Positions 2,801-33,381 of a stretch of 64,000 nt of DNA are shown piece by piece. Made by a program: the position numbers and the translations under genes. Source of the stretch: Blasia pusilla (Eukaryota); the NCBI GenBank assembly GCA_050084515.1, contig CM114271.1, forward strand, positions 29,450,001 to 29,514,000. The letters are read 5' to 3'. Under the pieces are notes generated by a model. That model saw only the letters and a list, made by a program, of their open reading frames with translations. It did not search any database and was not told the DNA's origin. Positions within the stretch are counted from its first letter, which is position 1, and each line of letters opens with the position of its first letter.

Positions 2801-2824
2801 GGTATCACACTTAGTCACCCCAAG

Positions 2825-5539
2825 ACTTCTTTGAGGAGAACCTCGTACGCTTGTTCTTCTTGGTCAGCAAATATATGAGGATTTCATCAAACAACACCAC
2901 TACTCCCCTACCTAAAAATCTTGAAAGATAGTATTCATGAGACTCACGAATGTAGTTGGGGCGTTGGTCAGTTTGAATGGCATCACTAGGAACTCATAGG
3001 ATCTAAATCTTGTCCTCATCACGGTCTTATGTTCATCCTCTTTTGCATCTCAGATTTGGTAATACCCTTGCCTTAGGTTTATCTTGGTAAAATACTTGGA
3101 CCTTGCCACCTCATCAATCATTTCATCGGAGAAAGGCAACACATAATTGTTCTTGAGGGTATTTTTGTTCAACTCCCTATAATCCACGCACAAGCGCATA
3201 GACCCATCCATCTTTGAGATGAAAAGGGAAGGGAATCCAAATGCTGACTTACTCAAGAAAATGAACTTCCTTTCCTCCAATACTTTTATGTGCTCATACA
3301 AGAGTTTCCTTTCTTGGGGAATCATCCTTTACAGATTCCTCGTGATTGAGGGAGTTTTGGATTTGAGTTCAATCTTATGATCCACGCCTTGCTTAGGAGG
3401 CAACCCTTTTGGAAGTTCCTTGGTTAAGACATCCCCGAACCCTTCCAAGATTTTCCACACTCTAAGCGGAAGGTTTCCTTTTAGTTCCTCCTTTAGTGGT
3501 GCATCATCCAATTTTGACTACTCAACTTTCAACATGACTCCTCATCGTTGGAACCCACCCTTGAGATCCTTTTCCAATTGCTTGGCTAAAATCAATTGAG
3601 CAACGTGCTTTACTTCATTAATCCTCAAAATTTGAGAATGCAACTTTGCGCTCTGAATCTGAAGAATCCTCATGGCATTTCCATCACCAAGAGGAACCTC
3701 TAACATGCATTTGGCTGATCTAATCACTATGGGATGTCCACACAAAAACCTAAGTGAGAAAATCATATTTTTGTTGCCTAAGCTACATACTATAATATTT
3801 TCCCTAGTGCTAAACTCGGCTTCTAGTTTTTGAATCACCATCTTAATATTCAACATATGGGTTAAGGTGATTTGTGAGTGTTCGTCTGCATAGATCAAAA
3901 CTTGGGATTGCTCCATGTCGATTATAAACACTCCTGACCTCTCCATTGCCTTCGAATCTAGGAAGTTGTAGGTCGTCCCTTGTGTCAATTAAAGTAACCA
4001 CGGATTTTTCTTCCATTAGTACCTCAACTAGAAATTGGCACTCACTAGCATCCTTATGCAACTCCTTGGAAGGCTCATCACCTTCCCTTAGTCCTTGAAG
4101 GCTTTCGAGAAAATTCACTAAACGTCAAGGCGTTTCTCTCCCTTACTTAGTCAACGTCCTTGCGCTTGGTGATTTCTCTTGCTTGTTGCAACGGTGGTTT
4201 TGCCTTCCATTGATCCCTTTCACCTTGGGACACTCCCACTTGAAATGACTAGGATCATGGCACATATAATACCCTCTAGCGACGGGTTCACTCGAGATCA
4301 CTCCTTGCTTGGAACTCGGCAATTTTTGAGGTTTGAACCTTTTGGGTTCTAGCCCTAGATGCGGCCTTGTCTCTTTAGGTTTCCTCTTGTTTGCCCCAAC
4401 AAAAAGTGCCCTTAGCTTCATAACGAGGATCATCTTGTCTTGCTTCTCAAGACTCACATCACCCACCACTAGTTGAGTAGTCATGTCAATATATAGCCCC
4501 CTTTAGCTTCCCAAACTTGTTTGCCGGCGTAGCACTTTTCTCCCTCATTTTACAAGATAGTCCCCGTTCGTAACGAAGACCATATTTTAATCAAGCCTTC
4601 CAATTGAATTTTCCGCAACCGAATCCTAGCTTGAGTTACTTGATCTTGAGATGCCAAACATCTCCTCATTTCTTCAGTAATCATCCTCAATCCGGCTTTG
4701 TGGTGTTTTGGACCTTACAAAATTCTTGGTACCATGTGAGTGCACATGCATCTAATTTTAAAGAGGCCTCGACTCCCCATCTAGTTCTCGAACTTGATAA
4801 GTCCCAAAAATATGCTTTACCTTTGTCAGCCATTGATTGAGGCGCTTCATATCCATCTTGTCTCTATACAAGGATAACTTCTTCCTCACATCTCCCAATT
4901 GATACCTTGGGGAAAAGATTGAAGTTGAACTATATGCCTTCTTGGTCTCCCCAATCACATAGTCCATCTTGGCTTGGGGTAATTCCTTCAACACCTCAAA
5001 GATGATGTGTTGAACCTCATTGGAACTCGCGGGTGTTTGAACCCCCCTAACTTTCCTCCGAGCATCCTTCCTAACATTCTTCTTCACGGGTGATAACTCG
5101 TTGGGCTCATCCATTTGTGTGTCATCCCCAACGAGGTCTAGTTCCTCCAACAAAATGCCAAGAGTCTTGGGTAGAGAGTTTCAGTTGATCGGCCTTTTGT
5201 CCCCTAAACCCTTATCTTGCTCAGGTAACTCATTGAATTCACCTATATTCTTGAACTCTTGAGGGAGATTGGGCCAAATAGGCTCATTCTCCACATCCCT
5301 CAAACCTTACCCAATCCGGGGCAATTTGAGAGCCATAACCTTCTTCCTACCCCTTTGGGGATTGTCTCCATCTTTGGCTATGCCAATCGTTGCCACCAAA
5401 ATTTCCCATTAACCATGGCTTATTTGGTGACTTGCTCTGATACCACATTGTAGAGTCAATCCTCTACTTCCTCTAGCTTCACCTTGAAGCTTTCCCCACG
5501 TTGAGCTTTGCAAGTGGAAGACTTAGCATGAGTCCCAAA
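2825..5539 (-). mobile_element. Truncated conventional Ty3/gypsy LTR retrotransposon (partial 5' LTR, PBS, gag, protease, N-terminal RT)
   Basis: RT motifs KMDGSMRLCVDYRELNKNT...FTKINLRQGYYQI (3050-3325), decayed protease LID(T) near 3990, gag knuckle remnant MCHDPSHFKWECP (~4230-4270), Met PBS at 5434-5445 and LTR edge at 5449. Many stops and frameshifts. Confidence 0.85.
5434..5445 (-). other. tRNA-Met(i) primer binding site
   Basis: Plus strand gctctgatacca = TGGTATCAGAGC on minus, 3 nt from the LTR edge (tgtagag at 5449). Confidence 0.85.
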
Positions 5540-5920
5540 CACTAGAAGAAATCTTGGTTAATATGATTCTAATATATGACTAGGTCGAGTCATTCTTCAT
5601 GGTAAATGACTCATAGTGACTCATAAACAATAGAGTCATATAAACCAAGTCATTTACAAGAAATGACTCAGACTACCCAGAAGGGAAATGACTGACTCAT
5701 TACTTACTCAATCATTGATTTATGACTAGAATATCACACGTGAGGGCGTTGTCATAGTGCCACGTCGTCACATGACATGACAAGAATGTTTTTGTTTTGC
5801 CTCTTAGATTGACACATGTATGAAATGACTAAGTCATAAATCCACTTCACAAATCATCAAATGACATGGCATAGTGACTAGGATTTGAATACCCTATCAC
5901 ATATGACCACGTGTCACCAC
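5540..5920 (+). repeat. Left CACTA terminal inverted repeat / subterminal region
   Basis: Aligns by eye with the reverse complement of 48455-48818 (shared actaggtcgagtca, aaccaagtcatttacaagaaatgact, taggatttgaata). Confidence 0.85.
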
Positions 5921-8900
5921 ATATTATGGAGAATTTTAAATAAAATAACCATGAATTTTTGCATGTAATAATATCATCAAATCATTTTTTGGCACTTGGC
6001 TTTAATGACCGAGTCATTTAAGTTACTTATATTTGTGACTAAGTGAGTCATTATATATTAGTATATGTGTCATTTTACGCGACTGTAAGGGCCATGGATG
6101 TAGGAAAGGACTCGGCCACTCATATAGAATGACTTAGGTAATAATTCATTTTTATTTATTTGAAAGAATTAGTTGTGAGTAATTTTAAATTAGTGTAGTT
6201 GTTTACACGACTATGTCAATCATTGATAATTACGTCCGATCATGGCATGCTAATTTGAGTTCTTGCTTTGACTATTTTAGTCTTGTAGATGACTCCATGA
6301 GTTATTCTTTATCACTGCACCAAAAATAGTTTCTGACTACACAGAATAGTGTTGGCTTGGGTGGTTTATTGTTGAGTCATTGTCCATGTAACTTATGTAA
6401 GTCCCAGTTAGGGACTATTTCTTATTATTGAAGATTCATCTATCATCTTATCTAGTTGTTACTACCACCAAATACAAGATCTTTGTGTACCATAGTCACG
6501 TTTTGCAGAATATAAAAAAAAACAGCAAGAACAAATGAATGAATCCAATGTTTTACAAATTTTAAATCAAATACCATATGAGAATAGTTGTCAAATAGTT
6601 ACCACAAATATGAAAATAGTTACCGAATTTAATCACGCAAGGCATGCATAAAGAACTGACTATATAAACAATGAGCAAACCAAAACAGGATATAATTTTC
6701 AGAAATTCATATAGTTATTGGAAAAACAGAAGCACCATCCGTTTGGTGGGACAAAATCATAGCCATGTGGCACCTATGTTACCTGAGATATTGAAAATCA
6801 GGTGAGAAAATAAAGTTTATTATCCATTAATTGACAAGATAAACATGTAGTTACAGGTCTATGCAAGGGCCTACTAAAAGTATATCTTGTCAACCGAATA
6901 GCCAAACTATCACAAAATTGCTATACTTGGTGAGGTTAGCTATTGTTAGGCAACTAAATACAATGCCCCATTAGAGACATAGATTGGAGTTTCTGAATAC
7001 GCTCAACAACATGCACATTGTCTAGATAGATGTTGCCACATTAGTTGCAAAAAATCTTGAGCTCAGAATAGATGTCGTTGAGTCAATCCTGTAGAATGAT
7101 AATGTTTGAGTGACAAACTTCACTCAAGAACTTGAGTCTACGGAATTGGAGGGAAATGAAGTATAACAAATTAGATAGAAAGAAGAGCTCATCGTCGGTA
7201 CTAATACTCCTTCATACATATAGAGAGTCGAGAGTACCTACTATGAAGATAATCACTTGAGAAAAATGACTAAAAAGGCACGGTGGATGAGGTGGATTGA
7301 AATCTCGTGCAAATTTGTTCGTCTCCTCCTTGCATGAGCCAATCACAAGAACGAGAAATGTAATGTACAATGAGTAACAGAATTGATCTTTTTACATAAA
7401 TTTAATGAGTTCGATCCCCAAGAGGATCATTGTTTGGTGGAAAGAGAGATCAAAATTACAATTCTCTTATATTAAGTGTGTATGATTTAGATTCAATGTC
7501 TCATCAATATCTTCGGATATTTCTCAATACCGAGGTTTCTTTTCTCAATTCTCTCTAGTGGAGTTGACCGCACGCTCAGGTAGATTTCCTCTCGATATCA
7601 AGAAACCTCACAGAGACCTCAACATGACGCTGGCTTCTCCTAGAGACCTCAACATGAAGCTGGCTTCTCCTACTTTGGGAACTCAATCTGTCTCGGCAGG
7701 CTACTCTCTATCAAACAGATTTCCTACAACTCTGTTGATTATTCCATTGATGAGAAAGGTTTGCCTGATTCACTCTTCACTCTACAGACCCAAAAAAAAT
7801 ACTCAGACATAAGCATCGCACATCAGAATAAATGAATGATTGCTTTACTACTCCATCAAGAATGAGAAAGGTGCAAAGTGTTCTACAAGCTTGAGAGGGT
7901 ACTACTCCCTTGCTCGGACCATTCCTACAGCATGAGGACTTCGTAAGAGAATGATAATGATAGCTACTTGCATGTTTCTTAAATACTCTCTGAAGTAGGA
8001 GTGATCCAAAGATTTGAAGCGTTCTTGATGAAGTTGGTGTCTCTTCAAAATTTGTAACTACCTAGATCTATGGTGCTCTTCTCTTTTCCTAAGATCCCTA
8101 TGAATCCGCAGAACAAAATTGTCTTGACTACCTATCTGATACAAAGAGTTGCGCCTTTTCCTATTCTAAATGTTATAGCTATGTGTCGCTTGAAATCACT
8201 GTCAATCTTAGCTTGGCTTCGCTGCTAAGTCTGGACCTCTTTTGCTTCGCTTGAGGATAAAGTTCTTTCTCCTGATGTGAAGACGAAGTGCTTTATTCTT
8301 TGTTCTTGTTCCAAGGGCTTCGTTATTCGTGCTTTGTTCTTCGTGCTTCGTTCAAGAGCGAAGCACTTCATACACAACTTCTTAACAGAGCTTCGTTGTC
8401 TTTTCGAAGCTTCTTGCTGGGTCTTTAGACTTCGTTATTGTATTCTCCTCTCCTCTCAAGCAAATCCTTGATTTTCTATCTCTCTGCCTTGTCCTTGGAG
8501 CTTCGTGATTCACTTTAATCTTACTCATTCTTCTCCATAATAATATCAAAATCATAGTGTATATACAAGTCTTCTTTGAATATAAAGATGTAATTCTTCA
8601 AAAGTACAAAATTATGGGTATCACAAGAAACCATTAGGAATTTTTTAGGTAGGCCAGAACGCTTGCAAGTTGGAACATTTATGTTGTTATTGGCGTTGGA
8701 TCTAAGATTTTCTGAGCATATTTTCGCAAAACCTGATTCCAATAAAATCGTTCGTTTGCATTAACAAATCTCGTCATTATGATGAGTAGATAAAGCTTGC
8801 ATGAGTAGTAGCTCTTTGAGTTGAAATATTTTGAAAGATAGATGTCACCGCCTACTTGACTCCTAATGTGTGGTAATCTAGCTGATTTCAAGTCTCATAA

Positions 8901-9738
8901 GTTACAAATCACACAGCTCCATCGTTGGGACAATACAATGGGTGACAGTCAACGATAAAGTGACGAAGACATACGAGTTCTAATACATCCCAAATCCAAC
9001 AAAGAGAGGACTAAAATGTGATAAAATTGAGTGTCAAAATCAAGATCCATTGTGCAAATCTAGCAGTTAGAACTTTCTCACCGAGAACAGAGAACTGCGT
9101 TATTTCATTGCAACCAAGGGCGATCTAAGAACCTCTAATATGGAAACCAAATGTTGTTGTCACTGGAGTGTGCCAACTAGCAAAAAGTTCCCTGACTACC
9201 AACCAATTACCACCAATTACCAATGAAAACTGCAATGGTAGCCAATACTCTTAAAGTCCTCAATATGGCTCCAAATGAGCTGAAACGAAGGGGAAACCTG
9301 CTCTCTCAGGTTTCTTGGGGCCTCAACAGGTCATCCTTGACCTACTGAGCCTGTCCTCCACTACTCAAGAAGGTGCTCTACTACATCTCACCAATCTATC
9401 CTAAAAGACGTGACAACTGTCGTGCGCATTCACATCGCTACACAACATATATCGTTGTCACCGAACACACACACAAACATGCACGATCCCATGCTAACTC
9501 ATGGCATCCAAACGACGAGACAAGAAGTACTAAAATATCTCTAATCGCCCCCTTAGGTGGTGGTTAGGTCCCTCTAACTCCAGATAGCCATCTATCCCTA
9601 CCTACCATGACATACATCTCTCGGACACTAAGAGCAACAAAGGCCGGGTGCTCATGTGGCCCCATTGTTAGTCGCCTTCTTGTCATCCATGTCACAGAAA
9701 AAGTCGGAATCGAAACCAACCTAGTATCTCCTCTATGT

Positions 9739-11139
9739 TCATCTAGGACACATCCATCGTCCCCGAGGAACCCTAGTGAGAGGTGGCGTCAGACATGCCA
9801 TATGCCAACCTCTCGAATATCCATCACAGACTAGCATCGTGGCCGCACCACGGGCAGAACCACACAACATACAACGCAAGCGTGTAGGAACTACTGCTAA
9901 GCTCGGATCGATTGTACCATCAATGTTAGGAAGATGACATGGCGCACAATTATGCACATGGTCCTTCCATACCATACCATCACGTCCCTCTAGCAAGAGA
10001 ACACCGAATGAAACCTCTGGATAGCATGCACTCTCAGGATAGTGTGCCCTATAGTCACATCCAACATCATCGGTGCCGTCTGCTGCAAGTAAAAATAATT
10101 TTCCTGATGAAACCTCTGGATAGTTGGTCGATAACCACAACCCCGAATATTCGCATACCTCAACGTATCTCGATGCTGCGCAATCGCCAAGTTCTCGAAC
10201 GCCATGGGCATCACTCTCCGAAATAACTCAGCCCTCTAAGAACATGCTTGCATCCATACATATGGGTCATCAAGGTCTAGCACCTCACCAACATCTTGAC
10301 GAATGGCCGTAGGTAAATCTGGCTCTCGGCCATTAAGTATCAAGTACGGTGAAAAAGATGCTAAGGATGTCTGCCTGCTGAATCTGTATCCCATTGCCAA
10401 CCACGGCAACTGGAGGTCCCAATCTCCTAGGTGACCTCTCTGCAAGCCATACTTGCGTGAGCCCCTCTTCACCGTCTGCACAAATCTCTCCGCTAATCCA
10501 TCTGCCTCAGGATGACCTCGCGAAGTCGTGCGATGGTCGATCAGCGCCTTATCACACAAGGTCTAGAACTCACCGCGAAACTCAGTACCCTCGTCTGTCA
10601 GCACCTCAGCCAGTGCACCATAATGACTCAGCACTCTGTCAAGGAAGGCATAAGCTACTCCCTCACTCGCTTTGTCAGGCAATGCAACCAACTTGATCCA
10701 CTTTGAGAAGTACTCGACCATCACCAACACATAATGACTATGACGCTCCGTCAAAGGCAAAGGTCCATCTATACCCTAAGCCCATGATTGGTAATGGATG
10801 CAACTCTGGAGTCGGAGCATTGAACGATGCTTGGACCCGATCACACACCATGCACCTGGCAACAAGCTTCTGAACGTCAGTCTGCATGCCTCGCCACCAA
10901 TACTGAATCTGGAGCAAGTTGTACGTCCGCTTCACCCCAAAGTGACCCAACTCCTCCTGGGCATGCTGCACTAGTCGTGCTCTCTGCAAAGGACGCGGCA
11001 CTATGCCTACTCTACCATCCTCCCAAACCCTCAAAACATGTGTCCACTCCCAACGGAACCGTCCGGCCCGTTGTAGGATCCGATCTCCCTCTCTAGCACC
11101 CACGGTGCTCGCAACGCTGCAAGTACGAAGGTACTCCAA
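9739..11139 (-). pseudogene. Integrase (H2C2 zinc finger + DDE core) with C-terminal PHD finger, copy 1
   Basis: ELGHFGVKRTY...YWWRGM...CMVC; EVLTDEGTEF; HPEADGLAERFVQTVK; CMLC...VCDGYSRGWHMACLTPPLTRVPRGRWMCPR*. Broken by stops and frameshifts. Confidence 0.9.
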
Positions 11140-11163
11140 GACTACTCCATCATCATGAATATC

Positions 11164-12630
11164 TCAGCCACCTTTCGTCTCCTCACTGGCCTTGGGATCC
11201 AAGGACTCTCCACTAGACCTCGCCATCGAAGTCTCCACACTCTGGCTCTCCATAGCCAACATGCCTAAATAGGATGACAAGTGCCATCCTGGCACTAACT
11301 CCTCATCACTCTCTCCATGCCATCGAGCTCTAGTTGCATCTCGCTGTCTCACGCATGGGTTACGACTCAACCCATCTACATTCTGGTTGAGCGTCCCAAG
11401 TCTATGTACCACCTGAAAATCATACTCCTGCAACAAAAGAGCCCATCTTGCAAGCTTCCCTATAAGCTTGTCGGACTCCATCAACCACTTGAGTGGTTGA
11501 TGATCAATGATGATGGTAAAGAGGTTGCCAAATAAGTAACACCTGAAATGCACAACAGCCCACACTGCAGCCAAGCACTTACCCTCATATGAGCTGTACT
11601 TTGCCTCTGCAACGTTGTTCGAGCGGCTAGCGTAAGCCACCATGAAATCTCTACCCTCATCATCATGTTGGGTGAGCACCGCTCAAAGCCCCAACATGCT
11701 CTAATCTGTGTGCAAGTGGAAAGGACGCCCCCTGATCGGTCTCCTCAACATGGGCGCGGACGTCAACCTGTTCTTGAGCAACTGAAAATGCTCACTCGTG
11801 CTCATCCCTTGACGTACCGCCGATAGAAGTTCGCCAATCCCATGAATGCGCAAACACGGCTCACATCTGTAGGGCGTGGAATGCGTGAGATAGCCTCTAC
11901 CTTCGTCTACTAAACACCAAGGCCTCCTGGGTATATAGTATGACCCAAGTACTCAATCTGGTCGTAGAAGAACTTGCACTTGCCTGGATGTAGCTTCAGC
12001 TCATGTAATTGCAATCGTCAAAACACCTCCTCTAGATGTCACTCATGCTCCTCAAGCGTGGCGCTAAAGATTACGATGTCATCAATATAACACCTGGAAA
12101 AATCCAGACCAGCCAAGATCCTATCCATGATCCTCTGAAACTCAACCGGGGCGTTCTTTAACCCAAATGGTAAGAATCGCCACTAGTACAAACAATCCTT
12201 CCCGTGAGGATCGATGCCCTAAAATGCCGTCTTTTGCCTGTCCTCCAATTTGAATAGGCAATTGATGGTATCTAGCTTGCAAATCCAACGAACTCAAGAC
12301 CTTTGCGTGACCAATCACATCAAAGATCTTCTCAGGGATGGGCATGGCATACCTATCGGACTTTGTCTGCCGATTGATAGGTCAGTAATCCCCACACATC
12401 CGCCTATCTGTCCAATTGCCATGCACATCCTTCCTGGTGTGCATGACAGAGGCAGATGCATACTCTCCATGCGACATCTCCACTAGTCCTACTCCGACCA
12501 AGTCCTGGCTCCTACTCTGAATTAGAGCCCTTTCCATATCATTATACATGTAGGGTCGTCGGAAGATTGGCGTATCACTCGACAACTCAATGTGGATCCC
12601 CGGTCCTTTAAGCGTACCCAAATCCTCCAT
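11164..12630 (-). pseudogene. Reverse transcriptase and RNase H, copy 1
   Basis: PIFRRPY, RRMCGDY, SSLDLQARYHQL, YIDD (tcatcaatata at ~12080), VAYASR...YSSYEG...DHQPLKWL...KLARWALLLQEYDF...N..DGLSR. Confidence 0.9.
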
Positions 12631-12919
12631 GCTAAACGCAAATCAACTCCTATAACTCCTGAGGAACTGATGTATCCGGCGCCGCTCTCCTCCTGTCAAC
12701 TTAGGGCCCATATTTGGCTCCCAAGTCTCCATCGTGACTACGGTAGGACTCTCCAACGCGGGTATCGCTGGTTGCTATGTTGCAACCCCGTCTCGAACAA
12801 CAATACTTGGTCGCTCTCTTAGAGCCAACTGCAAATTGTGATCTCCTCCATGTGCAGTGCTCTAAACCACGCTTAATGTTGTGGCTATCTACTCCTGGCG
12901 TACCTGCGAAACATCCCAT

Positions 12920-13570
12920 TTCAGAATGGAATCCACTAACAAATGGGAGGGGCACTCGACTCTTGCATACGCCCTCCGTAACATCGCATGGGGCACCAAG
13001 TTGGTCCACCATAGACGTGGGCGATGGGCTCTAGAACCTACACTTGCTGCATCCAAGAACACTGCTGGGCCGATCCAGATACACACTTGATGAGCACTTG
13101 TCACCACTTGTGAACTGGAGTCTTCTAAGATTGGCATATTCTCCAGAATGTAGGCTGGAGAACCAGATTGGTGCTCTTGCAACTGCCGTAAGACCCTCAA
13201 CATCTCCCAAAACAACCAGGACCGAGTGTCAGCCAACTTGCTGCCTCGTCTAGCACTCGATTGACCGTGACATGGCCAACCAGAAATGACCAAATGAATG
13301 GTCCCTACGCGCTCTAAGTCCTGCGCCCCCAACAACCAAATATCCCTTGGTAGGGAACTCTAGTACCCCTGTACCGCGGACGTACACAATAAGTTTGGAA
13401 AACGTAGGCATAATTGCGCCACATGTTGTAGTGAGACGCGCCTCGCAACATCATCACTCCACATACATGTACTGTTGTACTCGCACTCATGCCTGCAAAA
13501 CAACAGCTAACCCCGTGCTAATCCCTCCAAAGAGATCTAACATTCGAATACCCTCCTCTGGGGTACACCA
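12920..13570 (-). pseudogene. DNMT3-like C5 cytosine methyltransferase domain inside pol, copy 1 (motifs IX/X deleted)
   Basis: IRMLDLFGGISTGL (motif I, ~13510-13550), LVISGWPCHG (motif IV), LFWEMLR, YILENM (motif VI), FLDAASVGSRAHRPRLWWTNL (motif VIII). Confidence 0.9.
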
Positions 13571-13913
13571 CACAATAGGTGTGGTATCAAAGGGTGTCAT
13601 CGTAGCCTAGCCTCCCTGCTACCTTGCGTTCCTGAGACCTGTCACGCACCGATGCAAATGCCTCGCTCCACGCGGTCTACACCTACTCATCTCCCAATCG
13701 TCGAAGCTCCTCAGTTGAGCCCCACAACGGCACCTCTCCTCCACAAAATGATGTGGCTACCATAACACTCCTCTCCATAGAAATGTCAGGAATGGGAGTA
13801 TCCTCTACATGGACATGTCCCTCAATCAAATCACTAGGCCAAGTGATGGCACTTCTAAATGCTGCTAAGGTCGCCATCTCTCCTGGTCGTTGCTCGATCA
13901 CTACACATGTGAA

Positions 13914-14280
13914 TCAAACGGGTAATGAGCTAAGGCGCCCATCACCTGATTGCCATCCTAGTCTGTAGGACGCTGACTCCTCCCAGTAATCCAAGGCAAA
14001 CCCCATCGAGTATAACACTGCTCCACCAACCAAGACGTTGTAGGGCTCTGCATCAGTCATTATCGCCTTGGCTCTCACCACGGACTCATCAGTAGGATGT
14101 CCCGGGAAAATCCTCGCCACGACCTTCTGTCGGGTGATATACTGTGTGGTACTCGCTCCACCCAAGGATGTCTGTATCCGGAATGGACAACGCTCCACAT
14201 CGGCTCTCGTCAAGCCCAATTCTTTGAATGACGCTTTCCCCAACATCAGGGGTTGTGCTCCTAAATCCAACAAGATGCGC
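13914..14280 (-). pseudogene. Retroviral-type aspartic protease, copy 1
   Basis: LLDLGAQPLM (variant D-x-G site) ... IQTSLGG ... YNVLVGGAVL; lies between gag and the DNMT domain. Confidence 0.7.
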
Positions 14281-14870
14281 TATGGACTAAACGCTCTACC
14301 TCCGGGACTCACCAACTAGAAGACCTCTCCTCGGTTATCCATCAACACAACACCAGGAGAAGCCATGGCACGCTCTATCGCTGGTCTCCGCCATCCTAGC
14401 AGCCGCATCCTGCCATGAATATGATATGGATGGCCCGAACATCCGCTCCAAGGGCAAGTCCGATCCATCACCTCTTCTGCAATCACCTCTAAACGTGATG
14501 CAGGAACTCCAACTCCACACTCACATAGCGTAGCGGCCAGCCAAAAAGCCTCGGCGGGCATACCCCCCAATGTCATAATATCGGAAGCAGAAAATATAGG
14601 AGCGCGGTACACAACGGTGGCCGCCCCCAAAAACGTGCTTGATACATGCCCCTCTTGAGCATCAAGAATAGGAGTCGTCGCACTTGCTTCTCCCATCGCC
14701 CTCCCTGCCTCCACACCAACAACATTACCAACTTTCTAGGAACTTTGATGAGGACCCATCGATGGGATCCTCATCGCTTTGGACAACATGAAATACTAAG
14801 GAAGCCTAGTCTATTTTCCGGCTTCTTCTCGCTGTGGATCCAACTCTACGGGTGCTCCACGCATCACAAC

Positions 14871-15756
14871 CGAGTTATACACACGAAGTTGTGAGAGATT
14901 TGAGTTTCTGCTCTTCTAGATTTGAAGATTTCAGATCTGAATTTTTCCGAGGCCATAACTTTTAGGTGGAGTGTCATGTAAAGCTGAGATTTGAAGAAAA
15001 CGTGGAGTATAAAAAGGTGCCCTAGCCCTCAAAATTTCAAACACAACAGAGTTATACACACGAAGTTGTGAGAGATTTGAGTTTTTGCTCTTCTAGATGT
15101 GAGGATTTCAGATCTGAATCTTGCCGAGGCCATAACTTTGAGGTGGAGTGTCATATGAAGCTTCAATTGGGAGAAAACGTGGAGTATAAAAAGATGCCCT
15201 AGCTCTAAAAATTGCAAATACAACCAAGTTATACACACGAAGTTGTGAAAGATTTGCGTTTCTACTCTTCTAGATTTGAGGATTTCAAATCTGAATCTTT
15301 CCGAGGCCATAACTTTGAGATGGAGTATCATCTAAAGCTGAGATTTAGAGGAAACTTGGAATATAAAAAGGTTCTCTAGCCCTAAAACTTTCAAGCACAA
15401 CCGAGTTATACACACGAAGTTGTGAGAGATTTGAGTTTCTGCTCTTTTAGATTTGAGGATTTCAAATCTGAATCTTTCCGAGGCCATAACTTTGAGATGG
15501 AGTGTCATATGAAGCTGAGATTTAAAGGAAACGTGGAGTATAAGAAGGTGCTTTAGCCCTAAAAATTTCAAGCACAACCAAGTTATACACACGGAGTTGT
15601 GAGAGATTTGAGTTTCTGCTCTTCTAGATTTGAGGATTTCAGATCTGAATCTTGCCGAGGCCATAACTTTGAGGTGGAGTCTCATATGAAGCTGAGATTT
15701 TGAGACAATGTGGAGTAGCTAGAGGCGTCTTAACCCTCAGAATGTCAAGTACAACC
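14871..15756 (+). repeat. Five tandem 177-bp monomers in the LINE 5' UTR
   Basis: Motif (g/a)agttatacacacg recurs at 14872, 15049, 15226, 15403 and 15580 (period 177); a diverged partial unit follows. Confidence 0.95.
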
Positions 15757-15831
15757 AACTTCTAGAGCAGAAGTTGTGTGGTGTTGGAGATTCAATTATA
15801 CTTTCTGGGATGTAGTGAAGTCGACTACAAG

Positions 15832-16587
15832 ATGACTACTCAAGACGAAATCTTGAATCTAGTGCAAGTGGTCTTGCATGAATTGAAAGAGCTTTGACAA
15901 GAATTCAAGGCACAAGCTTCTTAATTAAACCATGCACATATTCAAATCCGAGAGTTGAAGGCAACGCAAGAGGTTTTGAAGAAAGTGTTGAAAGATAGTT
16001 CTAGTGTGATGCTGGATCTTTCCAAATATGTTGCGGATGTTCAAGAGAAGGCATCATCCTTGGTGACTACTCCCAATAGTTCAGGATTGTATGAGGTTGT
16101 TGAAACTTTAGAAGTGAAAATGAAATCTTATGCTGAAGCTACAAAGGTTGCTCATATCTCTTTGTGTCAAGAGCAAGAGATAGAAAAAGAAAACCAATTT
16201 GCCCGTAGAAAGAATGTGAGAATCTCAGGTCTGCCGAAAACAGAGACCGAAGAGGTGAAGAGTGTTGTCACCAAGTTCTTGGTTGATACACTTCATGTTC
16301 ATAACCCGGACTTGGCTCAAGCTCTCCGTATTGGGAAAACGGGCACACAACCTCGTGCCATTCTAGTCAAGTTTGTTGATCAAATTCAACGTGATACTGC
16401 CATGGCTAACAAGGCCATTCTCAAAGGACGAAGGATATGGTTGGATCCTGATCTCACACCTCTACAAGTCGAAGCTAGGAGAAAGGAGCTTGCAAAGGTC
16501 AAAGAGGCTCAAGAAGCAGGTTTTATTGCTTATCTACGCGATGGTCGAGCAATTGTTACCCAGAGAAAAAGAGAGTTATCAACCTAG
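15832..16587 (+). pseudogene. LINE ORF1 (coiled coil + RRM-type)
   Basis: RRKNVRISGLP...ALRIGK...PRAILVKF...LKGRRIWLDPDLT is typical of LINE ORF1. ATG at 15832 is followed by two in-frame stops before the open part at 15955-16587. Confidence 0.8.
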
Positions 16588-16605
16588 CAATCCAAGAAGC
16601 TGAGA

Positions 16606-19600
16606 GTGTTGATGTGGAATATACGAGGCCTTTCAACAACAAAGTATGTGAGTGCTCTACCAATTTGGGGGATGGCGGATATTATCAATATTTTGGAGAC
16701 TTGGGAACATGAGATCAATACTATTGCAGATATGCAAGGGTTTACTTTGGTGGGATCGACATGGAATCAAAGAAGGCAACGGGCAGGAAGGGGTTATGGC
16801 GATATTGCTACTTTCATCAGGTCTCAATTTCTACCTCTCATACATCTAGAAGATCAAGATATTGAGGGCCAATATCATTGGCTACGTCTTGGTTTGGTTG
16901 GGGGATCTTATTGTTATCTGGCAGTTTGTTATTTTGCACCACTCTCCATGCCTATCTACTCAACACGCACTCACAATCGAAGTCAACCGTTCCATCGATT
17001 TATTGGGGATGTTCTCAAATATCAAAGCAGAGGTGAAGTCTTTCTAGTTGGAGATTTCAATGCTCGCATACGTACTGCTCAATTTACCCAATTCAGTAAT
17101 TCCTTGATTTCTCCTCTTCTCGAAGAATATGCGGATGGTTTGTGGTCTAGAATCTCTTAAAATCTTTCTACAAATCCTTTGACAAAGCATTTTTTAACCT
17201 TTGGAGCCACTTGTAATTTGAAAGTTCTTAATGGAACCTCTCATTTTCCCAACTCTCACTCCAATACGTGTTTCTCCTCTACCGGCGCTAGCACCATCGA
17301 TTATCTTGTGTCCTCACCCACAATAGCTCTCTTATCTCTACATTTGATATTCTAGAACCTCAGCCTGAATCAGATCATGCACCTCTTTTGTTTACACTCT
17401 CACTGTCAAAGGCAATTCCTCTCTCGACATGTCAATCTATTTTAGCTTCTCGCAAGTTTCGCTTAGATCTTGGTAAAACAGATCTTTATACGCTACATTT
17501 ACAAGAACTCTTGACTCGCATTGTATGGAGCCCGGATCCAAACACGGCAAGTATGCAACTAACCGAATTGCTAAAAAACAGTGCATCTAAGTTCTTTTCG
17601 CGCCACAGGGATAGAAGTGCTAGGAGGTTATCTTATAATGGGTGGTTTGACTCTCAATGCAAGCAAGCAAGGGCACGATCAGTTGATAAATCTTTGGATA
17701 TCCCAAGTCGGCTTATTATGACGAGCCTTTACAAATACTTGGTGAAATCTAAGAAACGAGCTTTCTTGCGGCGGAAACAAGAGTCCTTGAGTTTTGGAGA
17801 CGGTTAGTAGTACGGTCTTCAAAACCTATTCTTGATCCCAAGTCTTTGATATCTTTTGCCGAAAAGCTCTATTTCTTCCCCGATGCTACATCTATGCCAC
17901 GTTGTGAAGGAATACCTGGCTTATTCTCTGAAGGAGAGGTGATGACTCAACTAAGAAGATTGGCGAATGGTTAATGTGAGGATTTGGATGGTCTTTCTAT
18001 TGAACTTTTCAAGTGGGGAGGAGATTGTATTGGACCAATCCTCACCAAAGTATTGGGTGATGCTGCTATCTATGGTTTTCCTTCAACCTGGTCGCTACGG
18101 GAGATTGTTCCTATTCACAAATCAGGAAGGAAGGACTTGGTAACAAACTATCGCACTATCATGGTGGGTAGTGGTTTTGCCAAGTTGTTTGGGAAATTGG
18201 TGGAGTCGAAGTTGAGCACATGGACAGAGACTTTCCAAAAGAGAGCACGAGTCCAAGCTGGTTTTCGTCCAACATACAACACCATCGACCATATCTTGGC
18301 CTTGCGTGTTTTATGGGAGAAATCTAAGGGCAATGGAAAAGCTTTGTTTTTCGGCTTCATCGATTTCAAGAAAGCTTTTGATACTGTACCTCATAAGCTC
18401 TTATGGGAAAGGCTGCAAGCCATTGGAGTACCATCAAATCTCCTAGCAGCCGTGGCCACGTTATACCATTCCGTTCGGGCCAAGATCAAAGGTTCACAAA
18501 TTCAAGAGATCTTGAGTACCTTTGGAGTCATTCAAGGTTGCCCTCTCTCTCCTACACTTTTTGGAGTTTTCATAGATGATATCGAAAAGTGGTTGGAGGA
18601 ATGTGATAGTAAAGATGTCAAGCTTGGGGACTTTGTCATCAAAGCTCTATTGTATGCAGATGATATCATATTACTAGCACGTGATGGCATTAGTTTACAA
18701 AAGCACCTCGATACTTTGGCAAGATTTTGTACCCAGAATCAGATGGAGGTTAATATGGAGAAGTCTAAAGTCATTATAGTGGATACTAGATCCAAGTTCT
18801 CGTTCTTTTACAAAGGTTTACAATTAGAACAAGTGAAGAGTTACAAATATCTAGGCATCGATTTCTCTAATGACTATAGTTGGGCACTTTGCGTGCAAAA
18901 GAGAGTAGAAGCTGGTTACAAAGCTCTATATTCATTTTTAAACCGGTGTAGAAGAGCTCATCTTGTATCTTGGAGGCTTAGGAAATTCTTATTTAGGAGC
19001 ATAGTGTTGTCGGTGGTCTTATATGGGACCCAAGTTTGGGGCCCTAGTTGTAAGACGACAGGTTGGGAGTGCGTGGAGAGGGTGCAAAAGATCTTTCTAC
19101 AAGAAGAATTGGGTGTAAGAAACCAAACTCTGTATGCTATTCTTCTTGCGGAAACAGGTTGTCTTCCTCTAGAAGCTGAAGCTCTTTACTTGACCATCAC
19201 TTACATCGCAAGGGTGAGATCTCTTGATGTTTCTCGCCTCCCTCATCAAGCTTTGCGAGCCACACGTTCCATAGGGTGGATGGCGGATGTGGTGACTTGG
19301 TCTTCAAAGTGGAATGTGGCGGAACGCGATTGGGACTTGAAACCAATGACCCTCCGTGAGCATCTACAAAAGCAATTTCTCAACATCATTTGGAGCAGTC
19401 CGGGCACCAAAATAGAGTTTTATCAACTTCATGTTAATCCTATGCTTGTATATTGTGAACAAGGATACCTACTTGCGCGGATCTCCACGTTCTTACGACA
19501 TATTATCGCACGTCATAGAACTCGGTCTCATAGGCTAGGAATTGAGGAAGGACGATGGTTTAAAATTGATAGAAGTGAACGAATTTGTAGGTTATGTGAC

Positions 19601-19781
19601 GGAGAAAATATTGAGGATGAAGAGCATGTGTTTGTTACATGTCCAAGATATGAAGAGATTAGACTAGCTCATAAAATAGATGTGGAGAATTTCTATTCTT
19701 TACTATAGCTAGTGCCTTATGATTTAGGTTGTTATATTAGGGACGTCATTATTCATCGCTCAAGTGCTCTAGGCTGTAGCT
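16606..19781 (+). pseudogene. LINE ORF2 (AP endonuclease, RT, C-terminal CCHC)
   Basis: MWNIRGL, LETW, VGDFNAR, IDY, SDHAPL; NYRTI, QAGFR, FIDFKKAFD, QGCPLSPTLF, LLYADD, YKYLG; ERICRLC...EDEEHVFVTC. Several stops and frameshifts. Confidence 0.92.
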
Positions 19782-22700
19782 AGGAGAGAAGGTCTTAAGG
19801 ATCTTTTTCATGGTCAGTGAATGAATGACTTGAAATGTGTTTTTCAGCCTTTTGACCCTTTGGGTCCCACGGGCTTGATCTATTTACCATTTATCATTTA
19901 CAACTGCGGCGGCCTCCATCTGGGCAACCCCGCACATCCAACCAGGATCCTCCATATCTCTGGCTGCTCCATATGATGTCAATGCCACGGATCCGGCATT
20001 GGGTAACCTCAATGCCATAGCGGCAATCTGCTCCTGTAGCTACTGTATCTAAGCAACCATCCCAGCCTCACGTCCGGCGTCTCCCTCAACGCGTCTAAGT
20101 GGTGTTACTCTACCTCCTCCACGGGCAGCTCCACCACCCTATCAAGCAACTCCAGCTCCTCGTCCCCCAACGGGACCACCTGGTGCACGATCTCTAGGCC
20201 CACCCGGACTGGCTACTCGGTTTGGTGCCCTCTCTGGCCCTCGGTGCGGACATAACTCAGGATGTAAACTGAAACACCTGGCGCGTGTATGAACATACCT
20301 CTGACAATAGTCACACTAATAACCTCCTGGTGCAGCAGTATCTCCTCCTCCATGTTGAGGCACACGTCCATGACCTAGACGAGTGCAATCGCACTGATGA
20401 TGGGCTCCACCACATGACCAACAAGTAATAGTAGGCAGTTGCTACTTAGCTGTATATGAAGGCGCACGTCTCTATGGCACGGCCTCTCCATATCCTCCCT
20501 GATATCCACAGTCGACCTATCTCAGAGTCCAGATTGCTGCATAGGTGGTGCAGACAATCGCAACTGCTCTTGCCTTGAATACATGGTGGCTACGCTCTCC
20601 TCCGCCATGTTGCACTCAATGTTCTTGGCGGTCTTAAAAACATCTCTCAATGTAGGGGAGGTATTCATAAGAATCACCCCCTCCTGCACCCGTGTCCGCA
20701 CCGTCCGGTCCAGCATCGCGTACTATGACTGGATAGCCTGAGCCTCTATCACCCCCTGAGTGACGTTGATCAACCGGCGCAAGCAAGTGTAAGCCTCATG
20801 CAAACTCTTACCCGGGCGCCTTTGGAAGTCGTGGATGCTCCGCAACTTCTCCGCTTGTACCCCTTGGTAGCTCGCCCTCAACTCAACAAAGAACTCAACC
20901 ACAGGGTTAAACTTGGGACGAACCCGACTAGAAGGTACAACTGCTCCCGTGCCACTGACCCCTCCTAAAATGTCACTAGTGGAAGAGAAAGTAGCCTCTC
21001 CTGACTACTCCTCCTTATCTGGGAACGGCTCCATCCATGACATATAATGTGGGTCATAGTAGAGCCTCTACGCCTCGATCTCACATGCATATCTTTGAGA
21101 GAACTCATGGAAATCGTCCATGGGCGCCCCTCTAAATGCAGGAACATATCGTTCCATGCTGTAAACGGGTTGAACTCTCTAGAGTCCCTGGCCCGCTGGG
21201 AGTCGCACCAACTCCTAAACTCTGCTATGAAATTGTGCAACTCAATCGTACCTACTGCACCTGAAAACCTACGGGGTCTTCTACCCTGGTCGTCCATCTC
21301 GTACGCCCAACTGGTAGGACCACTCACAATGTGTGGCAATGTGCTCACAAACTTCTCTACATCCTTCCTCCTTGTCTGAAAATGACACAGAAGGAGGTCG
21401 AGATGGTCCCTCACGTGGAGATCCTCGGAACCTCGCGCCACTCCGCGTAAAACCTCCAAAGCTACTCTCGGGTTCATCACCTTGCCTCTCAAGGTCTCGA
21501 ACGGAAGTCGTGATGACCCTTGTGCCCCTCTCACCCGATCACTCTTGCCTCGCGAGTAATCCCTCAATCACTCATCCCAAATATATGACACTCGAACTAC
21601 ACTCTCCCTCCTTGAGGCGTGTAACAAGCGGCAACAAGCGGCGTAGTGCGGCAAATCGACGAGGCTATCATCTCATCGACAACCTACCCTCAACTCCGGA
21701 CATCCCACACAGGTCTATGTCCCCTAAACTACATACATAAATGATGCTCTCAGCATCCACATACCCAATATCCCCAAATAAACTACCCAAATCCCAGAAT
21801 CCCTCACACGTGAAGGGTAAAGGACCAAAATGGATAACCTGAACACATGTCGATATCGCACCTCAACAATTGCAAATCTCGACCCCAACTCGGTCATGGG
21901 GACAACTCCTTCAATCACCAAGTCAAACTCCTCCCGTGATGTTGCTCAAAACTTCTCGATAGACAGTGCGGTTCCTGCGGAATGGTGCGGCGTTGCACGC
22001 GGCACGGAACGGCTACGAACGACACGACCCCTCGATGGTGGGATGCGGCACTCAGTGGCATACCCTCCTCAATCAACAATAAACCGCCACTGTGCTCCAT
22101 AATGATGGTTCGGCTCCATGATCGAGACGGTCCGGTGCGGCCACAAGAGGCACGGCACGGCAATCAACGACGCGTTGCAGCTACGGGCGTCACGACACGG
22201 TACTCGATCATCGTCGAGCGGCTACCAATCACAACATAGCAGCATGAAATCACAACTCAAACACCATAACCGGAGGTCATCTACCATCATTGGTTCATGA
22301 AAAAACTACGATGATAGTGACGGCCAAAACAAAGTACATGGTGGCGACGCAAGTCAGAGAATCAACGAACGTCGTGGAAGACCATCCACTCCGTAACGGC
22401 AGAAATGGCAACCAAAGGGTGGACAACGGACGGTGGACCATGATGATGATGGTTGACCATTGATGATGACAATGATGGTGATGGTTGACCATTGACGGTG
22501 ACTATAACGGCGACGGCCGCCGGCGGCGTGGCGGCTGGTTTAGGGTTTGAACAATTTAACCCTAAAAATCGCCTAGCAATGGCAATTTTGCAAGAATCAC
22601 CTTAACTTTTTGTTAAAAATTCAAAATTGCACATTTTTTGTTGCACAGCGTGCACAACTTCACAATCTACGAAAAAATTAAAAAATATTTAGAATCAAAC

Positions 22701-23086
22701 ATTCCAGTAAAAATTGACAGGGACTATTGTAAAGCCCAATGTCTCTTTCTCCTATACAAAATTTGGCAGTGCTTCCACGCTGATTTCTCCCAACAAAAAT
22801 GTAAAACCTGTAAAAATACAAATCAGCAAGCTTCATGGTGCTCTTGAGAGAACCGGCATAGGGCAACCCGCCCCCATAATCAATCCCTATCAGAAATCAC
22901 GCAGCGCTTCCGTGCGCCACTCTTCCCCATGAAAAATCAACAAAAGCAAAGAACAATCAAAGCAGCCCTTGCTCCGGTGAGCACTCCCATGAGCCGCTGA
23001 ACAAGGAACATGGTCCCCAACCTACAAAAACAGCAAGTGACCAGCGAGCTCCCCCATCAAGCTCTCTCACTCTCTCATTCTCTTTT

Positions 23087-23531
23087 TGTAAAGTAAGATC
23101 CAATCTCTCTCTACACCATCTCACACCATAACTCTCAAAGTTGTGCACTCTCTCTCATGTCAAACCAAACCCACTCTCCTAGTGAGAGGCTTGGGTTACA
23201 CTCACAAGGCAATGGACCTTAGCTCCGCCGCCTTATGCCAAGAGGTTCAACAAAGAGAAAATGAGCTCTCAAGCTCTCTCTCCTTGAGGTATACCCCTCC
23301 CTTCTCCCAAGCTCTCTCCGTGGTAACCTATTCTCCCAAGTCACCTCCTTGGCTCTTGACCTGATGTAGGAGGTCAAGGGACACTTACCAAAAATAGTAA
23401 ACGAAGGGAAAACCTGCTCTCTCAGGTTTCCCGGGGCCTCAGCAAGTCATCCTCGACCTACTGAGCCTGTTCTCCCCTACTCACGAAGGCGCTCTACTAC
23501 ATCTCACCGATCTCTCCTAAAAGACGTGACA
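23087..23531 (-). repeat. 5' terminal repeat A of copy 1
   Basis: Homologous to 33510-34020, 9254-9415 and (inverted) 44254-44795; begins TGTCAC on minus. Confidence 0.9.
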
Positions 23532-24564: not shown

Positions 24565-25870
24565 CCTCTCCCTCTCCCCTGGCGGGAGCGTGGATAAAAT
24601 TGTTACGTGACTCTAAGATAGGAACGTCCCAGATATTTGACGCCAGTCAGGTGAGTTTTAGTAGATCCCATTTCATACGGCAAGGAAGACCTTGGCAAGG
24701 AGCAAGTAGATTCCTCGACCTGGATGACTTACATTTCGGGAACTTCTTCTATCGAAATGTATGTCATTAATTATGCACTTTTCTTTATTTTTTACCCTGG
24801 CGGAATGCTTCCTTGCTTTCCATGTAGTAGAACTCTTTCTTTGTCAGAAAGCTGCTACAGTTATGTTTACTTTGCGATATGGAGGCTATCTATTTTTCAG
24901 TAGCATTTTCGAATGAATAATGAGCCATGGAAAAATATTAGTGTTGAAGTAACGAGATTTCCTCTAAGGCAACTAAAAAGATGGCTTTAGTTCCGGGGAA
25001 TGCTAAATCACCAATCGATCTAGAGTGCAACAAGGGAGTGCAGTAGTAATACGTGTTGCATGAGGCATGCTTCAAGGACATGGATTTCCTTCGACACATC
25101 TAAAGTTATCACATCCAAATAAAATAGATGTGAACTGTCTTTAGAGATCCTTTCAAACGTTTCCAAGACATGGATAAGTGTGTATTCTGAATTGATGACA
25201 TGCTAAAGGCATTGGAAATGAGAGCAATGTAGACGTTGATCGTGCGGGAGAGTTTAGAGGTGTACCGGTACGTGTTCGGAGGACAATTCTCAAGGAACAG
25301 CTACTTCTCAAGGCATCATGCCTTAAATATATACATATCGTGCCAACCATGGAATTGGTTGAATTTGGCTCAACTAGTGTTGTGTATCAGGTACAGGAGC
25401 AAAGGAAGACTCAAATATCACATAGGGGACCAAGACATTCACTCCTTGACCTACCAACTACTTACTTGTACGTCACTCTTCTCATTGTTCTCCTTGCGCC
25501 TTCATGTAGGTTAGACCCTTGCTTTAGTGGTTAATTTGATGTGAGTGTAAGGTGAAGTACTATGGTCACTCACAACAAATTAGCTTTATAGTTTTTTTGT
25601 CCAGATCTTCGCTCGAAAAATTTATTAGACCATGGCTATGATGAAATGTACATATCAAAGGATTAAGTCATTATCTAAAGTTGGGTGTGTTACATTTGTC
25701 ATTCAGGAATGTCCTTGGAAGCGTTGGACCACATCGGTGAGGATTGTTAGTGACGATTGAAATCTCTATCGAGATAAGTCCGAGATTAGGTATATGTGCC
25801 TTATCATACTTTTCTTGACTTCACGTGGGTGTGCATTCGTCTAAGATGATAGCTCGTCCAGCCATGGTTT

Positions 25871-32500: not shown

Positions 32501-33381
32501 AATTGATTGTTGGATTATATATGCAGAGTGTGGAATCCATAGTCACTATTCAATTGGAAGAAGTGGAAAAGAAGTGGAGCGCAGATTTGGATGATGTGAA
32601 GTTGCAGATGGAACGGCAGAACAAAGCATAAAGTGTACTCATGGAAATGGTGTCCAAGCTTACTTCAAAGGATGTGTCTTTAACACCATACCATATTTCT
32701 AGTTCCCCGCCATCCAATTCTCAACCATATGCAACAAGGGATGAGAAGCTCACATCAAGTAGCCCATTCTCATTCTTCTGCCCTCGATTTTCAATGGTTA
32801 TAACTACTTGTCCTTTCCAGCATGAATATTTCAGAACTGACTTTCTTTGTTTTGAGTAACTTACAATCATTGCTGAACCTATACCAACGTTTGGAGCCGG
32901 ACAATTAGGGAAGAGGAAGATCTCCAAACAAAAAGAGGCCATGGCAACTATACAATCTGGTGGTAAGGAGTGAGTTTAGCTTCACTAGATGTAGGGTCTT
33001 CTAATATAATTACTTGTTGAAGTGAAGAATCTGGTTTTACAATTCATTTCTCAATACTTGGGTTATTTATAGAAGTGCCAGAACGGAGCAACAAAAGGAG
33101 AAGTTCCACAGAAAGTGCAGATGGTAATACTCGAATCACTCGTAAGTATGTCATCCTTCGCATCATGAATTTTTCTTTGGTGTATTTTTCAACCTATCCA
33201 CAAAAAAATACTCATTTCTTCCTACAATGTTCAATGGACTTTGGCGTGCATAATGTGTAGAAATCCTGAGTATGGACAACCAAGCCAAATCATCACTAGG
33301 CAAAAGTCTAGGCTACAGTCTGATGGTTTGAATGAGCAGGAAAGTGAAATCAGATCACGCTCGTCTAAGAAAATAACTAAG
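29533..33381 (+). pseudogene. CACTA ORF2 (TnpA/Ptta-like), multi-exon, 5' part
   Basis: Exon 31585-32114 encodes WNRLVYYWLSEEGKMKAEKMARAKAKV, typical of plant Ptta/EnSpm ORF2; many short GT-AG introns; directly downstream of TnpD. Confidence 0.65.

Follow-up and report, generated by a model that had tools for sequence, protein, structure and literature searches.

The stretch analysed here, hereafter the window, is a 64,000-nt piece of eukaryotic DNA (Blasia pusilla, contig CM114271.1) that is dense in transposable elements. Comparison of the window with itself by blastn revealed two long minus-strand copies of one element, 81-85% identical to each other and here labelled copy 1 and copy 2. 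The region of interest, 12920-13570 in copy 1, encodes the remains of a C5 DNA methyltransferase (DNMT) domain, and copy 2 carries its counterpart. Frameshift-aware protein-to-DNA alignment, with intact relatives as guides, gave the same polyprotein order in both copies, gag(CCHC)-PR-DNMT-linker-RT-RNase H-IN-PHD, where PR is the protease, RT the reverse transcriptase and IN the integrase; in each, the DNMT follows the protease and precedes RT. The principal features are as follows, with the motifs of copy 1 read from three-frame translation and codon coordinates:

9257-23531, minus strand: copy 1 of the Gypsy-DNMT element, split by a long interspersed nuclear element (LINE), its 3' terminal (A) repeat truncated
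33421-43614, minus strand: copy 2 of the same element, 5' end missing, with an extra 1.2 kb compared with copy 1
12919-13612, minus strand: DNMT remnant of copy 1, motifs I to VIII (tblastn to residues 328-559 of relative P0008; Pfam PF00145; codon coordinates)
13540-13511, minus strand: motif I of copy 1, LDLFGGISTG
13287-13264, minus strand: motif IV of copy 1, ISGWPCHG (PC)
13152-13132, minus strand: motif VI of copy 1, YILENMP
13035-13000, minus strand: motif VIII of copy 1, SRAHRPRLWWTN
12919-12926, minus strand: deletion junction of copy 1, a single 471-column gap through which the frame continues
37579-38643, minus strand: DNMT of copy 2, motifs I to X (tblastn to P0008 residues 321-678; Pfam PF00145)
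37467-37937, minus strand: copy 2 segment missing from copy 1, comprising the target-recognition part, motifs IX/X and the start of the DNMT-RT linker

C5 cytosine methyltransferases possess a colinear series of motifs, namely I (FxGxG), IV (PC), VI (ENV), VIII, IX and X. Copy 1 has I, IV, VI and VIII and lacks IX and X, while copy 2 has all of them, in order. An earlier note on this DNA, made from the letters alone, had placed four such motifs of copy 1 at the same position in Pol as in copy 2, and all four are found on the minus strand inside 12920-13570. The copy 1 open reading frame (ORF) at 12889-13359 (minus strand, 156 aa) matches PF00145 with an E-value of 7.8e-6 and 26 bits, and the homologous ORF of copy 2 scores 27.5 bits, both above the cut-off of 22. 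Since the copy 1 DNMT ORF also matches 17 database proteins, the best with an E-value of 6.9e-53, the match is not a product of chance.

Neither copy can give an active DNMT enzyme, because stops and frameshifts lie inside the DNMT of each; both are dead, and have no function themselves. In copy 1, four inserted nucleotides near 13611 and a frameshift at 13456 disrupt the frame, the codons at 13487 and 13360 are stops, and 471 bp are deleted; copy 2 has a 1-nt deletion near 38605, frameshifts at 38081, 37828 and 37577, and a stop at 37859. The codon of the catalytic Cys is TGT in copy 1 and CGC in copy 2, where the residue is lost (GWPRQG), and motif VI reads ENM in copy 1 and DNV instead of ENV in copy 2. 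The earlier note had also credited copy 1 with the catalytic Pro-Cys, which is correct for the residues, but the domain carrying them is nonetheless non-functional owing to its stops, frameshifts and deletion. That deletion had been described as a loss of roughly 470 bp covering motifs IX/X and the linker; it proves to be a single gap of 471 bp, a multiple of three (157 codons), at 12920 in copy 1 against 37467-37937 in copy 2. The corresponding segment of copy 2 encodes EREGAMGFP (motif IX) and GQAMDLN (motif X), and is bordered there by the short repeats TGGAT and TGGGAT.

The remaining parts of the polyprotein, and the repeats that flank it, identify the backbone of the element:

13656-14861, minus strand: pre-protease region and aspartic protease (LLDLGAQPLMLGK) of copy 1 (tblastn and frameshift-aware alignment to P0008 and P0012)
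9736-12750, minus strand: linker, RT, RNase H, IN and PHD of copy 1 (alignment to P0028 residues 57-1081; Pfam RT_RNaseH, Integrase_H2C2 and PHD)
23089-23531, minus strand: A1 repeat of copy 1, resembling a 5' long terminal repeat (LTR), beginning TGTCACGTC and with no B repeat after it
9457-9545, minus strand: B1 repeat of copy 1, 93-95.5% identical to the copy 2 B repeats
9257-9415, minus strand: A2 repeat of copy 1, truncated after ~160 bp, 91% identical to copy 1 A1 and copy 2 A2
34062-34144, minus strand: B1 repeat of copy 2, 94% identical to B2
33509-34020, minus strand: A2 repeat of copy 2 (3' LTR-like), from the self-comparison
33421-33503, minus strand: B2 repeat of copy 2, completing a coding-B-A-B arrangement

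Pfam recognises PF00145, RVT_1, RT_RNaseH, Integrase_H2C2 and PHD on the minus-strand ORFs, and the integrase of both copies consists of zinc-binding and core parts followed by a C-terminal PHD finger. A gag zinc knuckle lies upstream of Pol, where the CCHC part of P0012 matches 20315-20238 in copy 1 and 40290-39760 in copy 2 (tblastn). The order PR-RT-RNase H-IN with this upstream zinc knuckle, together with direct terminal A repeats, is that of a Ty3/gypsy element. Copy 1 has the A repeat (~0.45-0.5 kb) at either end, and copy 2 has it at its 3' end. The additional B repeat of 83-89 bp is atypical; it stands directly before the 3' A repeat, and in copy 2 also directly after it, giving an overall layout of A1-coding-B1-A2-B2.

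For the two copies to serve as separate witnesses of the DNMT, they must stem from separate insertions. A global MAFFT alignment of their 3' 5.6 kb shows 83.6% identity over 5,556 aligned columns, with 25 gaps. The differences are transition-rich (625 transitions, 284 transversions), and the observed/expected ratio of CpG is 0.69. In guide coordinates, the pol part has 14 stops and 4 frameshifts in copy 1 and 15 stops and 1 frameshift in copy 2, and the PR-DNMT part has 7 genuine stops in copy 1 and 6 in copy 2. None of these stops, ~21 in each copy, is common to both; the lesions never fall on the same codon, and the indels that break the frame all distinguish one copy from the other. Only copy 1 contains a LINE, which has the target duplication ACAAC, and only copy 2 contains the 1.2 kb at 42098-43312. 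The flanks, compared over 1.5 kb to either side of each copy, show no similarity, the best match being 16 bp at an E-value of 0.079.

Two apparent lesions did not survive inspection. A frameshift seemingly common to both copies in the PR-DNMT linker (guide residues 319/320) was rejected after nucleotide alignment and translation in all three frames: the copy 2 frame continues to ATMT and is broken by the private 1-nt deletion near 38605, and that of copy 1 is broken by the private 4-nt insertion near 13611. Two of the nine stops listed for the PR-DNMT part of copy 1, at 13619 and 13607, are artefacts of frame placement.

Common flanks or common lesions, which the earlier note had named as the outcome that would speak for duplication of one dead insertion, were looked for and are not seen; copies 1 and 2 inserted separately. 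That a single dead insertion was duplicated together with its surroundings, so that the copies are not independent, is very improbable: their location on the same strand, 24 kb apart, would suit such an event, and identity among the short A and B pieces is no higher within a copy (91-94%) than from copy to copy (91-95.5%), but neither similarity in the 1.5-kb flanks nor a common stop or frameshift is found. The ratio of nonsynonymous to synonymous divergence (dN/dS) is moreover far below 1 in every enzymatic domain, which is unexpected if all divergence post-dated a dead insertion.

I computed dN/dS between the two copies with the Nei-Gojobori method (NG86), excluding stops and frameshift-adjacent codons. 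DNMT motifs I-VIII give 0.22 (211 codons, bootstrap 0.14-0.32), RT 0.27, RNase H 0.23, integrase 0.29 and the PHD finger 0.21. A domain-wise comparison of this kind had been proposed as a check, and it places the DNMT alongside RT and integrase. Values are higher for the protease (0.65) and the PR-DNMT linker (0.58); that of the pre-protease region (1.29) is probably inflated by poor guide alignment in a weakly conserved stretch, and was discounted. By codon position, the DNMT differences number 39, 25 and 83 at positions 1, 2 and 3. Of the 69 residues invariant in at least nine of ten relatives, 61 are conserved in copy 1 and 54 in copy 2, and two changes common to both copies were probably already present in the active ancestor. 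Repeat pieces of the same kind, A or B, are 6-9% divergent inside one copy, and the copy-to-copy divergence is about as large. Taken as neutral decay since insertion, 6-9% is close to the dN of RT (0.085), and the remaining synonymous divergence would then come from active, selected lineages, an estimate drawn from small samples.

Raw reads from one genomic and three RNA runs were mapped to the copy 2 region 34300-39900 at a likeness of at least 80%. From the genomic run, of which ~1% of reads were sampled, 121,273 reads mapped, most of them less than 90% alike and only 43 at least 99% alike. Depths, given as bin means with both read directions summed, are ~1,840x over the DNMT, ~2,080x over the protease region and ~3,190x over RT-IN-PHD. 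If the 43 near-identical reads correspond to ~1.15x single-copy depth, the family would amount to roughly 2,000 copy-equivalents. Many reads are free of the private indels of copy 2 (795 of 1,137 at 39186, 677 of 1,852 at 39261, 645 of 1,599 at 37831 and 900 of 1,482 at 39669). Because the DNMT depth about matches that of the neighbouring protease region, and because so many reads lack the copy 2 frameshifts, the DNMT is a feature of the whole family. The earlier note had drawn the same conclusion from the two copies, and it is borne out by their independence, by the read depth, and by relatives with a DNMT at the same Pol position (see below).

The reads also bear on when the 471-bp deletion arose. 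If it predated the insertion of copy 1, there would have been a transposing sub-lineage whose DNMT lacked motifs IX/X, and the DNMT would be dispensable for transposition. The exactly in-frame length (157 codons) and the TGGAT/TGGGAT borders, as expected of template switching during reverse transcription, are compatible with this, but one deletion in three would keep the frame by chance. Reads cover the deleted part no less deeply (1,770-2,430x) than the rest of the DNMT (1,256-2,030x), and the copy 1 junction is absent from the 15 joints listed, of 61, so that a rare junction elsewhere is possible. I regard an origin before insertion as a minority possibility.

The three RNA runs yielded ~5,300 mapped reads each, with first mates ~10-50 times more frequent on the plus strand than on the minus strand. 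By the usual library convention, the family RNA is therefore minus-strand, that is, sense. Only two reads per run are at least 99% alike, and the RNA therefore comes from other family members. RNA depth is ~25-64 over the DNMT, below that over the integrase (~100-280). A recurrent RNA joint, 36118-37195, skips 1,076 bases with CAGTG between its sides, and is supported by 14, 24 and 11 reads in the three runs; none of the sampled 1% of DNA reads shows it. Its ends do not fit an intron, and it most likely comes from transcripts of a family member that has lost linker and RT sequence internally.

Protein searches place the closest named relatives among bryophytes. The DNMT ORF matches proteins of Sphagnum troendelagicum and Calypogeia fissa at 57-66% identity, and the RT ORF matches models of Marchantia polymorpha and, at 77%, Calypogeia; PF00145 and RT occur together in the Marchantia models P0023 and P0030. 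A profile of ten relatives retrieved 120 proteins, the named ones being only from Marchantia, Calypogeia and Sphagnum species. PC, ENV and RAHRxRLWWTN are kept in all ten aligned relatives, and the relatives have the whole motif series, IX and X included. PF00145 was matched in 10 of the 11 relatives scanned, and Pfam gave no other domain associated with DNMTs there, neither PWWP nor ADD. Gene models of Marchantia, Calypogeia, Sphagnum and Closterium join the DNMT to the protease and/or RT. It is hardly conceivable, then, that a fragment of a host DNMT3 gene or a chimeric assembly accounts for the DNMT-like stretch: nothing beyond general DNMT3 similarity speaks for it, and against it stand these gene models, the same position in both copies, and a read depth in the thousands that is continuous from protease through DNMT to RT.

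The domain appears DNMT3-like, by the ranking of solved-structure matches rather than by a tree. With the intact relative P0008 as query, DNMT3A is the best PDB match (E-value 3.6e-11), followed by DNMT3B, DRM (1.2e-6) and M.HaeIII (4.5e-5), and DNMT1 is not among the 37 PDB sequences matching at E-values up to 0.01. The motif order is not permuted, being colinear in alignments to relatives and to DNMT3A; the plant DRM enzymes have a permuted order. Animal DNMT3A and DNMT3B (PDB 6brr, 6u8w and others) align over ~185 residues covering motifs I-VIII, with IX/X aligned weakly. They differ in that the domain described here is embedded in a retrotransposon polyprotein, with no PWWP or ADD found by Pfam in its relatives.

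A profile built from eight DNMT-only relatives was searched against 1.84 billion representative sequences, and retrieved 300 proteins at E-values up to 1e-30 and 3,537 up to 0.001. I classified 158 proteins, the best 150 matches and eight earlier relatives, with small custom profiles. The DNMT lies after RNase H and/or before integrase in 76 and before RT in 8, and stands alone in 74. Pfam annotation of 22 long matches agrees (18 of RNase H-DNMT-IN type, 2 with the DNMT before RT, 2 with a DNMT only), and found a PHD finger in 13 of them. The RNase H-DNMT-IN proteins include a Scenedesmus sp. PABB004 'pol' (P0253) and many metagenome proteins, with profile E-values of ~1e-47 to 1e-73 among the best 150 matches. 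Their DNMT domains are closely related to the one described here, and they share the Gypsy RT/RNase H/IN set and the C-terminal PHD finger, but their DNMT follows RNase H and precedes integrase, whereas the one here follows the protease and precedes RT.

The DNMT tree built from this set has 137 rows, 23 of the 158 proteins having been dropped for fewer than 270 DNMT residues. Six gene models obtained in earlier searches, which end before RT and have a protease upstream of the DNMT, three of them from Marchantia or Calypogeia, were labelled PR-DNMT-RT by hand. On one side of a branch with support of 98 are the window copies with all 12 PR-DNMT-RT and 22 DNMT-alone rows, on the other all 76 RNase H-DNMT-IN and 25 DNMT-alone rows, so that the tree splits exactly by Pol position, 12 rows against 76. 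The window copies pair with support of 100, and nest (support 100) in a clade with seven gene models, five of which are from the liverworts Marchantia or Calypogeia. Closterium is a named representative on the PR-DNMT-RT side, and the Scenedesmus 'pol' on the other. The catalytic Cys is kept in all 12 PR-DNMT-RT and all 76 RNase H-DNMT-IN rows, and ENx and the FGG-like motif I are mostly kept across both groups. In 44 of the 76 RNase H-DNMT-IN proteins and 4 of the 12 PR-DNMT-RT proteins, EC takes the place of the canonical PC in motif IV.

This distribution suggests that the Gypsy-DNMT type is widespread in green plants and that its DNMT domain has two insertion points. A larger hypothesis would be a green-plant-wide Gypsy lineage with an integrase PHD finger, which has carried a DNMT3-like domain since before the split of chlorophytes and streptophytes, and whose two Pol positions track the DNMT phylogeny (PR-DNMT-RT in streptophytes; RNase H-DNMT-IN in Scenedesmus and environmental sequences). 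I put this forward only tentatively, as a possibility falling somewhat short of an even chance.

Taken together, region 12920-13570 is very probably a pseudogenised DNMT3-like C5 domain in one of two old, separately inserted copies of a high-copy Ty3/gypsy family, in which the DNMT was part of the active element, was retrotransposed under purifying selection, and then decayed neutrally. The later decay of the window copies took the form of transition-rich substitutions creating stops, of small indels, and of the 471-bp deletion in copy 1. Propagation by retrotransposition with decay only after insertion was what the earlier note had proposed, and the private lesions, the unlike flanks and the low DNMT dN/dS argue for it, with the timing of the 471-bp deletion set apart. 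In active copies, the DNMT within Pol may methylate cytosines de novo on the new or nearby DNA of the element, and the putative role of the PHD finger would be to read histone tails and so guide integration.

The closest described system is KnitGypsy-Dnmt3, an LTR Gypsy element of the alga Klebsormidium nitens whose Pol ORF includes Dnmt3-type DNMTs (de Mendoza et al., 2018, Nat Commun 9:1341, PMC5890265). The same source proposes de novo methylation of the element's new or nearby DNA for retrotransposon DNMTs. The likeness to the element described here is threefold: a DNMT3-related, non-rearranged DNMT inside the Pol ORF of a streptophyte LTR Gypsy element; a DIRS-like A1-coding-B1-A2-B2 layout, here complete at the 3' end in copy 2 only; and purifying selection, with Ka/Ks below 0.2 there and 0.22 here between two decayed copies. 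The repeats of KnitGypsy-Dnmt3 are given as 'the same as that of a DIRS retrotransposon', a layout in which, according to the authors' reply to the reviewers, A1 and A2 flank the ORFs and two B repeats flank the 3' A2. The difference lies in the host, the named relatives here being liverworts, Sphagnum and Closterium; the two elements are likened by description, not by sequence, and no Klebsormidium protein is among the named matches of the protein searches.

Other retrotransposons whose Pol carries a C5 DNMT are SymbioDIRS-Dnmt3 and SymbioLINE-Dnmt of Symbiodinium. They differ in their backbones (DIRS with a tyrosine recombinase, and LINE) and in their dinoflagellate hosts, and the authors treat them as independent acquisitions (PMC5890265). 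In the yeast assay reported there, SymbioDIRS-Dnmt3 produced de novo CG methylation and the Klebsormidium domain produced none, an outcome the authors call inconclusive.

That assay also touches on whether the family DNMT is an enzyme at all. It could be conserved without methyltransferase action, as a module binding DNA or S-adenosylmethionine, as a structural part of Pol, or as a decoy for host silencing, and the lack of methylation by KnitGypsy-Dnmt3 in yeast would fit. This seems unlikely, as the invariance of PC and ENV in ten of ten close relatives is hard to explain without catalysis, and the catalytic Cys, with most instances of ENx and FGG-like motif I, is retained in both position groups of the tree.

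Several observations weigh against a once active, catalytic and selected family DNMT as outlined above. The sole tested relative of this kind, KnitGypsy-Dnmt3, is the one that gave the inconclusive negative result in yeast (PMC5890265), and no catalytic activity is known for the lineage. The estimate of selection depends on the method, YN00 giving 0.42 for the DNMT, and both dN (0.163) and dS (0.75) of the DNMT exceed those of RT (0.085 and 0.315), which is not fully explained. Depth over the DNMT is ~58% of that over RT-IN, which may reflect greater divergence, copies truncated at the 5' end, or related families that have no DNMT. The sense of transcription rests on the usual library convention. 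Lastly, the B-A-B end is visible in copy 2 only, and no target-site duplication is readable, each copy being without one terminus.

Retrotransposons with their own cytosine methyltransferase reverse the usual picture in which the host silences the transposon, and have so far come from few lineages, namely Symbiodinium, Klebsormidium and, in recent reports, Cymbomonas and Euglena. The element described here is of a known kind (Gypsy-DNMT3), in a host group where it is apparently unreported. Physcomitrella is the only bryophyte in the 2018 survey table, and the main text of that paper names neither Marchantia, Sphagnum, moss nor liverwort (PMC5890265); later texts speak of 'streptophytes (Gypsy-DNMT3)'. 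Neither the bryophyte copies nor the two alternative Pol positions are named in any paper found, within a partial literature that leaves some supplements outside. Here the Gypsy-DNMT3 type occurs at very high copy number and is transcribed, with bryophytes as its closest named relatives. If ~2,000 copy-equivalents and ongoing sense transcription are both true, the element DNMTs could therefore contribute to the methylation landscape of the host. Such a family is workable material for asking what an element DNMT does, the more so as Marchantia polymorpha has gene models with the same architecture.

Two further features are associated with the element in the window:

14871-19899, plus strand: LINE inserted into copy 1, with the 5-bp target duplication ACAAC seen against the uninterrupted copy 2
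44254-50100, plus strand: copy 3, a fragment of the element in opposite orientation to copies 1 and 2

The LINE has a 177-bp tandem repeat of 4.8 copies at its 5' end (identified with TRF), an ORF1 without Pfam match, and an APE endonuclease and RT in long open frames (Pfam Exo_endo_phos and RVT_1). The remnants of copy 3 are an A repeat with 5' region (44254-45456) and an integrase part with a piece of A (48823-50100); the DNMT region is absent from it, and it carries no information on the DNMT. Copies 2 and 3 are arranged head to head, copy 2 lacking its 5' A repeat, and the DNA between the copy 3 remnants is 72% similar to 5540-5921. The stretch at 42098-43312, between the 5' region and gag of copy 2, contains ORFs without Pfam match, and was either gained by copy 2 or lost from copy 1.

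The sense strand of the element is richer in G than in C, with 1,746 G to 1,128 C in copy 1 (9150-14875) and 1,938 G to 1,241 C in copy 2 (33350-39885), and the GC skew on the plus strand is ~-0.2 wherever the element family lies. Another decayed LTR-type element, on the minus strand of window positions 1-6000, has the same negative skew; a gag zinc knuckle is matched at 247-149 and RT, weakly, at 3409-2924, and no DNMT match was found in it. Finally, a gene of a CACTA-type DNA transposon occupies 25853-28116 on the plus strand, with a 571-aa open frame matching Transposase_21/tnp2 (E-value 9.9e-54), followed by DUF4218.

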